From the IMG/VR virus record IMGVR_UViG_2706794492_000015: DNA of 5,318 nt. One strand, given 5' to 3'. Position 1 is the stretch's first letter, and each line of letters opens with the position of its first letter. The notes below the pieces were generated by a model. The model was not told the DNA's origin. It saw only the letters and a list, made by a program, of their open reading frames with translations, and did no database searches. The DNA comes from a virus. Lineage: Duplodnaviria > Heunggongvirae > Uroviricota > Caudoviricetes. The translations under genes were made by a program, and so were the position numbers. Shown piece by piece: positions 1,710-5,238 of the stretch.

Positions 1710-1733
1710 AAAAAAGCCTTCAGGACTGAAGGC
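1710..1733 (-). terminator. Rho-independent terminator, minus strand, after the 65-aa ORF
   Basis: Minus-strand reading GCCTTCA-GTCC-TGAAGGC followed by TTTTTTATTT; 7-bp stem at 1716..1722 / 1727..1733 and T-run at 1710..1715. The stop codon of the upstream ORF lies inside the stem. Confidence 0.6.
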
Positions 1734-1917: not shown

Positions 1918-2040
1918 GTCTTTTTCCCTTTTTCGGTTAACGTGACACACCAATAACTCTTGTCAAAAAAGCCAGCAAGCTGAAAGACCGGTATTCACCG
2001 CCACCAGCGCGTTTACTGTACTGACGCGATTTCAGTCATA

Positions 2041-2061
2041 AAAAACCCGCCAGGCGGCGGG
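2041..2061 (-). terminator. tR'-like rho-independent terminator about 45-65 nt downstream of the pR'-like start
   Basis: Minus-strand reading CCCGCC-GCCT-GGCGGG followed by TTTTT; 6-bp GC stem at 2046..2051 / 2056..2061, T-run at 2041..2045. Confidence 0.6.
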
Positions 2062-2098
2062 GTGTAAAAAATCTTCTAACGTCAGGCATAAAACGCCC

Positions 2099-2138
2099 AT
2101 CGTTAGGGCAAATTTACCACAGATTCGGGAAAAATCAA
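2099..2138 (-). promoter_or_regulatory. Lambda pR'-like late promoter with sigma70-dependent pause element (Q-utilisation region)
   Basis: Minus-strand reading TTGATT (2138..2133), 16-nt spacer, TGG-TAAATT (extended -10; hexamer 2116..2111), then TGCCCT-AACGATGGG (AACGAT at 2104..2099). This parallels lambda pR' TAAATTTGACTCAACGATGGG as I remember it. It lies directly after the Q stop codon. Confidence 0.6.
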
Positions 2139-2143
2139 CAAAG

Positions 2144-2965
2144 CTATCTGGTCACCTTTTTCAGTTGTTGTTCTGCCCATGCTTCTTCAATATCAAACTG
2201 CACCACCAGCGTATCGTAAAAACGTTTAACTGTTTTTTTCCATGTATCAAGAGATATGGCATCGGTTACATTACATATGGCATTAAATGCCTCCGTTGAT
2301 GGTAGTCTTTCACAGCCACGACCACCACAACGCTGGCAGTCTCTGATAACAGGCATACCACGTTTTACCGACTCTTCACGATGAATGGCGACACCACGCC
2401 CACGGCAATCCTTACAGGCGGTGGAAACCTCACCCTTTCCGCCACACTCCGGACAGGCAACTTTTACCACCTCCCTGACTTTTTTCCATTCCTCCCAGTA
2501 AGACGGATACACGCCTTTTGTGCACTTTGCCCACACTGGCGGCTTACCATCCGGATACTGGATCTTGTTTGTAAAAACCTCGCTTTCAATAAATTTTTTT
2601 CCGTGACAGCAGGGGCACTGTTTTTTGCTCGCCGCGCTACGGGCATAATCTTCAAACGCATACGAAGCCATAATACGCATCACTGCCGGTTTTATTTCTG
2701 CCGGGAGTTTTCTTAACGCCGCCACGCGATCACACCGACTGAGTGCATATTCTGTCAGCAATTCTGTTGCCCGCTCTCTGTCATTCATACTAATGCCCAT
2801 TTTCCCAAGGAACGCAGAAAACCCCATCTCAGCCCGATTCTGTGTCATGCCCTGCGCGGCCATCACATCAGTGATACTCAGCGCATCTTTTGACGTTGAG
2901 GCCGATGCATCGGTCAGGCCAGGGGATTTTGGGGAGTAGTATTTCGGTAAATCTTCCAGTTTCAT
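2144..2965 (-). CDS. Q: Late antitermination protein Q, lambda-Q family, 273 aa with an expanded Cys-rich domain
   Basis: N-terminus MKLEDLPKYYSPKSPGLTD...ITDVMAAQGM and C-terminus TWKKTVKRFYDTLVVQ...KKVTR parallel lambda Q (MRLESVAKFHSPKSP...TDVMAAMGM...TWSRTVKPLYDALVVQ...NAVTR, from memory). Four CxxCxGxx-type motifs at C117, C171, C184 and C210. ATG at 2965 overlaps the rusA stop as ATGA. Position immediately upstream of the pR'-like promoter. Confidence 0.85.
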   Translation of the reverse strand: MKLEDLPKYYSPKSPGLTDASASTSKDALSITDVMAAQGMTQNRAEMGFSAFLGKMGISMNDRERATELLTEYALSRCDRVAALRKLPAEIKPAVMRIMASYAFEDYARSAASKKQCPCCHGKKFIESEVFTNKIQYPDGKPPVWAKCTKGVYPSYWEEWKKVREVVKVACPECGGKGEVSTACKDCRGRGVAIHREESVKRGMPVIRDCQRCGGRGCERLPSTEAFNAICNVTDAISLDTWKKTVKRFYDTLVVQFDIEEAWAEQQLKKVTR

Positions 2966-3348: not shown

Positions 3349-3639
3349 TTACCCAAGCACGCCAGTTGCAAAGGCGTGATCAAGAAAACGAAAAATTAAA
3401 TCAACCTGAGAACCATGCTTTTCTTCGAACGCCAGCGGATCCGCATGAAGCTCGTTGTGATGCTCCCGACACAGCGGTAGCGTGAAAATATCGTGAGATT
3501 TTGTCCCCATTCCGCCCTGACCATGACCAATCAGGTGATGGGGATCGTCGGCTGGCTTACCACAACACGCACACGGCTGTGTCTTTACCCAGCGTGTGTA
3601 TTTCTCATTTACCCAGCGGCGACGTTTAGGTCGTTTCAT
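3349..3639 (-). CDS. Small Cys/His-rich protein with an HNH-like (beta-beta-alpha-metal) motif, 96 aa; putative phage nuclease or zinc-binding protein
   Basis: Preferred start is the ATG at 3639, which overlaps the upstream stop as ATGA (3639..3636). The ORF-track start at 3684 is a GTG inside the upstream gene. Motifs CACCG, DDPHH and LCREHHNELH are spaced like an HNH zinc-finger nuclease. Confidence 0.6.
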   Translation of the reverse strand: MKRPKRRRWVNEKYTRWVKTQPCACCGKPADDPHHLIGHGQGGMGTKSHDIFTLPLCREHHNELHADPLAFEEKHGSQVDLIFRFLDHAFATGVLG

Positions 3640-4187
3640 GAACGATTCAGGAGACTCCGGATCAAATGATTGCAGGCCGCCCACCAGGATAATTCGGCCA
3701 GCGATAACTCCCTCTCCTGCGTACCGCTTATTGCGTGACGGATGACATCAATCATCCAGGCAACCAGATTCTGCTGAGCAAGTTGATCGAGTGATTCTGA
3801 TGTCTGGTCGCGCAGCTGGTTGTCGCAGTGCCAGCACAACACCATCGCGCCGGTACCATAACGGTGAATGACTGTTTCGCTGTGATGATAATCGCCGTGT
3901 GGCCACTGGCAGGATTTCACGTGACGTAATAACCAGTCAGACAGTGCACCTGCACCACCTGCTGCACGAATAACCCGCTCATCGCTGAAAAATGGCAGTA
4001 ATGTTTTATCCTCTGCCAGCGGCTGGCGAACGGCAGGAACGACTCCGGACGGCAGACCGCGCATGTTTTTCGGTTCCGGCTCCACCAATATTCTGCCGTT
4101 ATGGAATACTGACATTGATTCACGGCCTGGCTTAACGATAACCAGACCGAGTTCCGGTACCAGAACAGGTCGAAGTAATACCCGCAC
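3636..4187 (-). CDS. Hypothetical nin-region protein, 183 aa, with Cys/His cluster (CQWPHGDYHH...CWHCDN)
   Basis: GTG start at 4187 preceded by GGAGG, with the upstream TAA stop between the ribosome-binding site and the start. First ATG is at 4115 (alternative start giving 159 aa). Same strand and tight packing with neighbours. No family recognised with certainty. Confidence 0.6.
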   Translation of the reverse strand: MRVLLRPVLVPELGLVIVKPGRESMSVFHNGRILVEPEPKNMRGLPSGVVPAVRQPLAEDKTLLPFFSDERVIRAAGGAGALSDWLLRHVKSCQWPHGDYHHSETVIHRYGTGAMVLCWHCDNQLRDQTSESLDQLAQQNLVAWMIDVIRHAISGTQERELSLAELSWWAACNHLIRSLLNRS

Positions 4188-4890: not shown

Positions 4891-4908
4891 AAAAAACCGC
4901 CGAAGCGA
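4891..4908 (-). terminator. Candidate 3' terminator of the hok transcript
   Basis: Minus-strand reading CTCGC-TTCG-GCGG followed by TTTTTTGTTGTTTATTTT; the stem is short (3 GC pairs plus one GU) with a UUCG tetraloop, then a U-tract. Confidence 0.35.
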
Positions 4909-4978
4909 GTTAAGTGGGGTGCGTTGAGGATGCCTGACACATCAGAGGTGGCGAGGGATTTCTCCCCCGCCAGGTCTC

Positions 4979-5134
4979 TTACTCCTCAGGTTCGTAAGCT
5001 GTGAAGACAGCGACCTCCGTCTGGCCGGTTCGGATTCGTACCTCGCAGAGGTCTTTCCTCGTTACCAGTGCCGTCACTATGACGGTTAAACAGATGACGA
5101 TCAGGGCGATTAGCATCGCCTTTTGCTGCTTCAT
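4979..5134 (-). CDS. hokD: Hok/Gef-family type I toxin (small membrane-damaging peptide), 51 aa
   Basis: Translation MKQQKAMLIALIVICLTVIVTALVTRKDLCEVRIRTGQTEVAVFTAYEPEE matches my memory of E. coli HokD/RelF and is a typical Hok protein (hydrophobic N-terminal helix, TRKDLCE...R.G..EVAA/VF). ATG at 5134 preceded by AAGGAG with a 9-nt spacer. The 70-aa ORF-track version adds an in-frame N-terminal extension from an ATG at 5191. Confidence 0.85.
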   Translation of the reverse strand: MKQQKAMLIALIVICLTVIVTALVTRKDLCEVRIRTGQTEVAVFTAYEPEE

Positions 5135-5238
5135 AGCCTGCTTCTCCTTGCCTTTCGGCACGTAAGAGGCTAACCTACGTGTGTAGAGCATAGATATGGC
5201 CTCAGATTAATGTTAAGCGTCTTGCCGGACGCGTAATG

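Follow-up and report, generated by a model that had tools for sequence, protein, structure and literature searches.

Late gene expression in phages is commonly placed under a textbook switch made up of a Q gene, a pR' promoter, a pause element and a terminator, tR'. In lambda, Q recognizes, with its body and its zinc arm, a Q-binding element (QBE) situated upstream of the pause element, and in the Q-loading complex sigma region 4 is repositioned onto the -35-like sequence TTGACT (PMC9388147). Scrunching and pausing in lambda take place at a TNYG consensus, T+14 N Y+16 G+17 (PMC9191641). The TNYG sequence keeps the scrunched, paused complex stable 2-4 nt past the point of pause capture. The Pfam family PF03589 was named the Q-lambda family by Yin et al. 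(PMC9388147). In this work we analyzed a stretch of 5,318 nucleotides (nt) from IMG/VR record IMGVR_UViG_2706794492_000015, which we call the window, and within it the region directly after a Q gene on the minus strand. The window is a lambdoid prophage segment of Escherichia coli O157:H7-type strains, e.g., CP040316, with which it is identical except for a 212-bp stretch in a DUF968 gene. We consider it very probable that the region contains the late-gene cassette of this E. coli O157:H7 lambdoid prophage, consisting of Q, pR', a sigma-70-dependent pause element and tR'. The cassette definition and the mechanism discussed below were taken from PMC9388147 and PMC9191641. Of the components of a Q-lambda-type cassette as defined in PMC9388147, this locus has a PF03589 Q gene upstream, a pause element followed by GGG, a TNYG sequence, a terminator and, downstream in CP040316, late genes.

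Five nucleotides after the Q stop codon, the minus strand features the -35 hexamer TTGATT (2138-2133). A spacer of 16 nt follows, TTTCCCGAATCTGTGG (2132-2117), which ends in TGG, i.e., the extended -10 motif (T-15 G-14), and is a candidate QBE. The -10 hexamer TAAATT (2116-2111) is identical to that of lambda pR', and the gap TGCCCT (2110-2105) lies between it and the -10-like pause hexamer AACGAT (+1 to +6; 2104-2099), again identical to lambda. A discriminator-like GGG (+7 to +9; 2098-2096) completes the predicted sigma-dependent pause element (2096-2104). Transcription is predicted to start at 2104 (+1) by homology with lambda, in which the corresponding region (NC_001416) reads TTGACT-17-TAAATT-TGACTC-AACGATGGG. 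Between -15 and +12, the window and lambda pR' are identical at 20 of 27 positions. A first-pass annotation of the window had described TTGATT-16 nt-TAAATT-TGCCCT-AACGATGGG on the minus strand and had called this a close match to lambda pR' with its pause element. The elements are indeed present in this order, and the lambda genome record agrees with this description. The pattern TTGAYT-N15-18-TAAATT-N5-7-AACGATGGG had one occurrence in the window, and 200 dinucleotide-preserving shuffles gave no occurrence.

Further into the transcribed region, TATG at +15 to +18 (2090-2087) fits the TNYG consensus and places the RNA 3' end in the predicted pause at +17 (2088). With TNYG at +15 to +18, a pause at +17 is favored over one at +16. 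The earlier proposal had placed the pause near +16/+17. At -7 to -2 (2111-2106), TTGCCC occupies the position of the lambda -35-like element TTGACT. By analogy with lambda, transcription from this promoter would be constitutive, and polymerase would pause near +17.

The gene upstream (2144-2965, minus strand) encodes a Q antiterminator of 273 amino acids (aa). This open reading frame (ORF) matched PF03589 with an E value of 7.6e-50 and 167 bits at a cutoff of 26.7, and lambda Q matched the same family in the Pfam search. Identity with lambda Q is 32%, with a gap of ~66 aa in the zinc region. Residues 1-113 and 182-273 align to residues 1-113 and 116-207 of Q-lambda in PDB entry 7ubm (E 1e-39). 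Between the aligned parts lies a 68-residue insertion that adds two CxxCxGxx motifs, such that this Q carries four of them versus two in lambda Q. The divergent, enlarged zinc domain that had been noticed in the translation at first pass is hence borne out by the insertion and its motif count. The ORF is intact, and conservation includes the torus-forming N-terminal region as well as the C-terminal ...VTR. Taken together, the sequence supports the assignment of the upstream gene as a true Q-lambda-family antiterminator.

Downstream of the pause element, a terminator scan found the stem-loop CCCGCC-GCCT-GGCGGG (+44 to +59; 2061-2046, minus strand) with six GC pairs and a free energy of -11.6 kcal/mol. 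It is followed by a T6 tract (+60 to +65; 2045-2040) with the predicted RNA 3' end. Termination at this tR' would release an RNA of ~65 nt (63-66) versus about 192-194 nt in lambda. A GC hairpin with a U-tract about 45-65 nt after the start, and in consequence a terminated RNA much shorter than the 194-nt 6S RNA of lambda, had been anticipated in the first-pass annotation, and both agree with the positions found here. In the SfV and Ayreon records, the depositors had marked the homologous hairpins as terminators.

Other candidate features around tR' were rejected. One terminator-like hairpin at 2110-2094 (GCCC-TAACGAT-GGGC followed by TTTTAT) has a 5' arm that precedes the predicted start, and the hairpin lacks conservation in other Q subtypes. 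For the stretch at 1918-2045, between tR' and the next ORF, we considered a second terminator or structure; its fold was no better than that of shuffled sequences (z +0.43). A small ORF of 22 codons starts from the ATG inside AACGATGGG; it lacks a ribosome-binding site, and in lambda the same frame stops after two codons. Rfam returned no family at 2038-2138, and its matches in the window (STnc100, AgvB, sok) lie elsewhere.

To compare loci, we collected 260 usable loci with Q-lambda-family genes from one genome per species and from viral contigs. Contigs were queried with this Q, lambda Q and a Scandinavium Q, and Q stop codons were placed by tblastn. Directly after Q, the relaxed motif A[AG]N[AG]AT[GA]G was found 5-7 nt behind a -10-like hexamer at 253 of the 260 loci, and the distance was 6 nt in 245. 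In its strict form, TAnnnT-N6-AAYGATRGG, the motif occurred 216 times in 1.77 Mb (both strands), and 214 of these occurrences were located directly after Q. Besides viral contigs, the hosts comprised Escherichia, Shigella, Atlantibacter, Mangrovibacter, Phytobacter, Scandinavium, Kosakonia, Buttiauxella and Entomohabitans. The TTG of the -35 hexamer is kept in all Q-lambda-family loci examined, and most relatives have TATG or TGTG at the TNYG position. A module of 121 nt from the window matched 2501 of 5426 complete E. coli genomes, and it also matched the induced or sequenced phages Evi, mEp460_ev081 and Stx2_EH1910.

Among 58 distinct sequences from 250-aa Q subtypes, conservation peaks at the -35 region (CTTGC), at TGG, at the -10 hexamer, at AACGATGGG, at +12 to +18 and at CGTT (+24 to +27). 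Beyond CGTT (+27), column conservation falls to zero. The spacer behaves differently from the pause element: it varies little within a Q subtype and shows no relation from one subtype to another, whereas the pause element stays unchanged. It reads TTTCC[C/G]GAATCTGTGG for the Q type described here, TTTTCAAAAAATATGGA for the SfV/Qin type, TGTGGGGAAAAATTGGC in Entomohabitans and TATTGAATAAAATTGGG in lambda. A subtype-specific spacer next to a constant pause element is as expected for a Q-specific binding site beside a sigma-specific element.

The short tR' is not peculiar to this phage but usual in the Q-lambda family. Of 131 distinct regions, 114 had a terminator-like hairpin with a T-tract that ends at +49 to +68, among them every region behind a non-lambda Q subtype. 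The stems vary (CCCGCC/GGCGGG, CCCGC/GCGGG, CCTCGC/GCGGGG, CCCTGC/GCAGGG, CCCAC/GTGGG, CCTCGT/ACGAGG), and RNAalifold reported four terminator pairs with compensatory changes. Even among the viral contigs with a Q 99.5-100% identical to that of lambda, roughly half have a short tR' ending near +53 to +56 (loci L103-L182). Only the canonical lambda sequence and close copies of it showed no short terminator within 110 nt. From the prevalence of tR' ends at +49 to +68, it follows that a short RNA is the family norm and the 194-nt 6S RNA of lambda the exception.

The start site, the pause, termination, binding of Q to the spacer and readthrough are inferred here by analogy with the described systems, and the switch may operate as follows. 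Sigma-70 holoenzyme would start at ~2104 from the extended -10 promoter. Sigma region 2 would then re-engage the non-template strand at AACGAT(GGG), +1 to +9, and the complex would scrunch and pause near +17 at TATG. As long as Q is missing, polymerase would escape, terminate at +44 to +65 and release the ~65-nt RNA. After induction, the 273-aa Q would accumulate, bind its own site in the spacer, join the paused complex and travel with polymerase. Q-modified polymerase might thus pass tR' and continue into the genes for the winged-helix protein, the methyltransferase, lysis and morphogenesis.

Several points weigh against reading the locus as a working late-gene cassette. The core hexamers match consensus at only 8 of 12 positions, the spacer has 16 nt, and a generic promoter scan missed the site because of the weak hexamer match. 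We did not take the scan result against the promoter, since lambda pR' itself matches at only 9 of 12 core positions and since the extended -10 TG is present here. TTGCCC, the presumed -35-like contact for sigma region 4, matches TTGACA at four of six positions and is poorly conserved; other subtypes have TTTTCC or similar in its place. The contact of sigma region 4 with the enlarged Q arm may hence differ from the one in lambda. In the literature and in RNET-seq sigma-pausing supplements, we found no transcript, pause or termination data for this element, and the literature gave no description of the promoter of this Q subtype. In strain Sakai, we located no copy of this Q type, and the inspected prophages Sp10, Sp14 and Sp17 carry other Q types; the Hfq-CRAC table for Sakai consequently neither supports nor excludes an Hfq-bound RNA from the locus. 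Finally, the prophage may be defective, given the 212-bp deletion in the neighboring DUF968 gene.

The 5' end of the predicted RNA may itself be structured. RNAfold gave a 5'-terminal hairpin at +1 to +27 (2078-2104, minus strand) with -8.6 kcal/mol, in which +1 to +4 (AACG) pairs with +24 to +27 (CGUU) and +7 to +12 with +16 to +21. The predicted RNA as a whole folds into two hairpins with -21.9 kcal/mol (z -2.45). With 24 diverse sequences, RNAalifold predicted the 5' helix independently. In 44 distinct sequences, 93.5% of the cells of this helix were paired, versus 32-44% when the partners were slid by 1-3 columns. The 3' arm, CGTT at +24 to +27, is conserved across genera (related loci L003-L262). 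Lambda-Q phages retain TCGTT at +19 to +23, which is complementary to AACGA, across three different loop sequences, and two contigs with the pause element AAGAAT carry a downstream CATTCTT as its perfect 7-nt complement. Being the pause element itself, the 5' arm is not free to vary. Every pair change in the 44-sequence set affected one side only (G-C to G-U), and the shuffle control was marginal (3/500), so that covariation is unproven by this set. In several lineages, the outer stem is broken and no compensating change is seen (GAAGTT, GGTGTT, ATAGTT). Selection on the 5' hairpin is therefore plausible but unproven.

We may speculate, if only tentatively, that the RNA copy of the pause element forms the 5' arm of a conserved, family-wide hairpin that is selected for a function of its own. 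Such a hairpin could possibly protect the short pR' RNA from 5'-end-dependent decay. It could possibly also keep the G-rich stretch at +7 to +10 from competing with the C-rich terminator arm. Alternatively, a possible StxS-like trans role could be assigned to a family of prophage RNAs of ~55-70 nt.

These ideas lead to the rival explanation that fares best, in which the cassette is as described and the ~65-nt RNA is functional in addition, either as a StxS-like trans-acting small RNA or through its 5' hairpin in cis, for example, in RNA stability, terminator folding or Q loading. A precedent exists in StxS itself, which derives from the pR'-tR' region of Shiga toxin (Stx) phages and regulates rpoS and stx1 (PMC7547250). 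Conservation of the transcribed region up to +27, well past the pause site, would fit such a function. So would the retention of the 3' arm CGTT (or TCGTT at +19 to +23 in lambda-Q phages) while loops are replaced, the excess of paired cells over the slid controls (93.5% versus 32-44%) together with the RNAalifold helix, and the perfectly complementary CATTCTT in lambda-Q phages with AAGAAT. Against it stand the lack of any two-sided pair change in the 44 sequences with only 3/500 in the shuffle control, the uncompensated breaks of the outer stem in several lineages, and the absence of both StxS similarity and an Rfam family at the site. On balance, we regard an own function of the RNA as rather unlikely.

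Much less probable is that the locus is an inactive relic, i.e., part of a cryptic prophage with a dead promoter or a dead Q, its sequence kept only through recency. The weak core hexamers (8/12) and the 212-bp deletion, by which the adjacent DUF968 gene is split, could be read this way, and defective lambdoid prophages are numerous in O157 genomes (PMC7547250). However, the Q ORF is intact, with conserved N- and C-terminal regions that contact RNA polymerase, and the module occurs in 2501 of 5426 complete E. coli genomes and in induced or sequenced phages. Moreover, functional columns are conserved across genera and flanking columns are not, which points to purifying selection rather than recency. 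Hardly credible is, lastly, that the hairpin at 2046-2061 is a mere terminator of an early operon ending with Q and that the promoter and pause resemblance is incidental: the hairpin lies only ~100 nt past the Q stop codon and would also stop unmodified transcripts running through Q, but the promoter/pause motif occupies this site in 253 of 260 loci and is nearly absent elsewhere, its chance expectation was zero in 200 shuffles, this terminator is also found in Stx2_EH2201 behind the late promoter region of an unrelated Q family, and the two terminator roles are not mutually exclusive.

With the late-gene cassette as the preferred reading, tR' also marks a boundary. In BLAST comparisons with phages, two blocks of homology met at the terminator. 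The first, window positions 2198-2038, covers the end of Q, the promoter, the pause element and tR' and is common to Evi and mEp460_ev081, where tRNA genes follow. The second, 2061-1900, extends from tR' onward with the winged-helix gene and the methylase and is shared with many Stx2 phages. In Stx2_EH2201, this second block is found behind a 126-aa Q of an unrelated type with its own upstream sequence (L266, 1490-1660). The homology blocks break at tR', and the terminator is thus a recombination junction that separates a Q-specific control module from exchangeable cargo. In line with this layout, a 'moron insertion site' has been described for O157 prophages (PMC4104026). In Ayreon, a cargo module of tR', winged-helix and methyltransferase genes lies between duplicated terminator copies.

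All genes concerned are encoded on the minus strand in the order hokD/sok, DUF968, RusA, Q, winged-helix ORF and DNA methyltransferase. The winged-helix ORF (65 aa; 1720-1917) is predicted to be the first cargo of the Q-dependent late transcript, followed by the DNA methyltransferase gene (511-1569), so that the predicted cargo spans 511-1917. In CP040316, a holin, the lysozyme RrrD, a lysis protein and a terminase are encoded downstream of the cassette on the same strand. The promoter site thus sits where a late promoter is expected. A second strong terminator-like hairpin, GCCTTCAG-TCCTGAAGGC followed by T6 (1716-1733, minus strand), overlaps the end of the winged-helix ORF and lies upstream of the methyltransferase gene. 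Only Q-modified polymerase would get past this further barrier.

In the DUF968 gene, 212 bp (CP040316 locus positions 9666-9877) are replaced by a single base at window positions 3665-3667, which splits the gene into two ORFs (3349-3684 and 3636-4187). The 212 bp are present in all 100%-identical genome records among the matches listed, and both a deletion in the source and an assembly artefact are possible. Two convergent small RNAs were found at 167-431, between the methyltransferase gene and the next late gene. The anti-GcvB sponge AgvB lies on the plus strand (167-228; 96.5 bits) and an STnc100/EcOnc06-like RNA on the minus strand (231-431; 150 bits). A convergent AgvB/STnc100-type arrangement has been described for O157 prophages (PMC4104026). 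At the other end of the window, a hok/sok-type toxin-antitoxin locus occupies 4979-5303, with an Rfam sok match of 111.7 bits at 5129-5303 and with hokD, a 51-codon gene in the source genome annotation, inside a 70-codon ORF (4979-5191). An isrK match at 4891-4970 (minus strand) reached 20 bits versus a gathering score of 50 and, being below threshold, is probably due to chance. IsrK is a Gifsy-1 RNA from an antitermination-regulated promoter.

The mechanism considered here is the textbook one. The element hence leaves the understanding of antitermination unchanged, and its value is a practical one. It represents a common variant that apparently has not been studied individually: the module is found in nearly half of the complete E. 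coli genomes, and a variant of it resides in the K-12 prophage Qin. If pR' is constitutive here, as it is in lambda and in Stx phages, an RNA of ~65 nt would be made widely. Our survey also corrects a common assumption, because in the Q-lambda family tR' as a rule is short and lies ~50-65 nt from the start, with the lambda 194-nt 6S RNA as the exception. Only this family-wide short tR' and the candidate 5' hairpin go beyond the textbook. In practical terms, the locus offers a natural Q/promoter pair that combines a lambda-identical -10 hexamer and pause element with an enlarged zinc arm of Q and an unrelated spacer as the presumed Q-binding site. Such a pair could be a clean system for analyzing how the arm and body of Q read DNA and contact sigma region 4. 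The usefulness for work on antitermination specificity that the first-pass annotation had seen in this pairing is thus well founded, as the pause element is identical to that of lambda and the Q arm is enlarged.

Late promoters with other Q families are those of phages 82 and 21, whose pause positions differ. Their Q proteins belong to the unrelated families PF06323 and PF06530 (PMC9388147). StxS resembles the RNA proposed here in being a short RNA that arises in lysogens by termination of late-promoter transcripts at an equivalent genomic position (PMC7547250). In contrast to the Q described here, the Stx phages of Sy, Lan and Tree (2020) carry a different Q of 144 aa, and their primary transcript of 258 nt is processed by RNase E to 74 nt (PMC7547250). 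When window positions 2030-2145 were compared by blastn-short with the Q-to-tR' region of Sp5, only terminator-like matches of 7-11 nt were obtained, and by this comparison the RNA has no homology to StxS. In Sp5, the Stx2 phage of strain Sakai, a CCCGCC...GCGGG-T7 hairpin similar to tR' is located ~50-70 nt after the stop codon of the 144-aa Q (L267, 1075-1095). This hairpin is found well upstream of the published StxS 3' end.

The lambda pR'/qut/tR' region and the locus described here both have a Q in PF03589, the identical -10 hexamer TAAATT, a 6-nt gap and the identical pause element AACGATGGG, TNYG near the same position and an intrinsic terminator before the late genes. In contrast to lambda, the Q protein here contains the 68-aa insertion with two extra zinc motifs, and the spacer, the presumed QBE, is unrelated in sequence and measures 16 nt instead of 17 nt. 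The -35-like element is TTGCCC rather than TTGACT, TNYG is shifted by 1 nt, and the RNA would have ~65 nt versus ~194 nt. Furthermore, only 5 nt lie between the Q stop codon and the -35 hexamer, compared with ~44 nt in lambda.

The regions of ydfT (quuQ) in the cryptic K-12 prophage Qin and of Q/orf47 in SfV likewise combine a Q-lambda-family gene with an enlarged zinc region, the promoter and AACGATGGGC. Both also have CGTT at +24 to +27 and a CCCGC...GCGGG terminator ending near +62. With SfV, the likeness extends over the transcribed region from +1 and the winged-helix/methylase cargo at 78% identity. Their Q, in turn, has 250 aa, is 42% identical to the one described here and contains a shorter version of the insertion. 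Their -35 hexamer and spacer, TTGCAT-TTTTCAAAAAATATGGA, differ from those in the window, which implies a different Q specificity.

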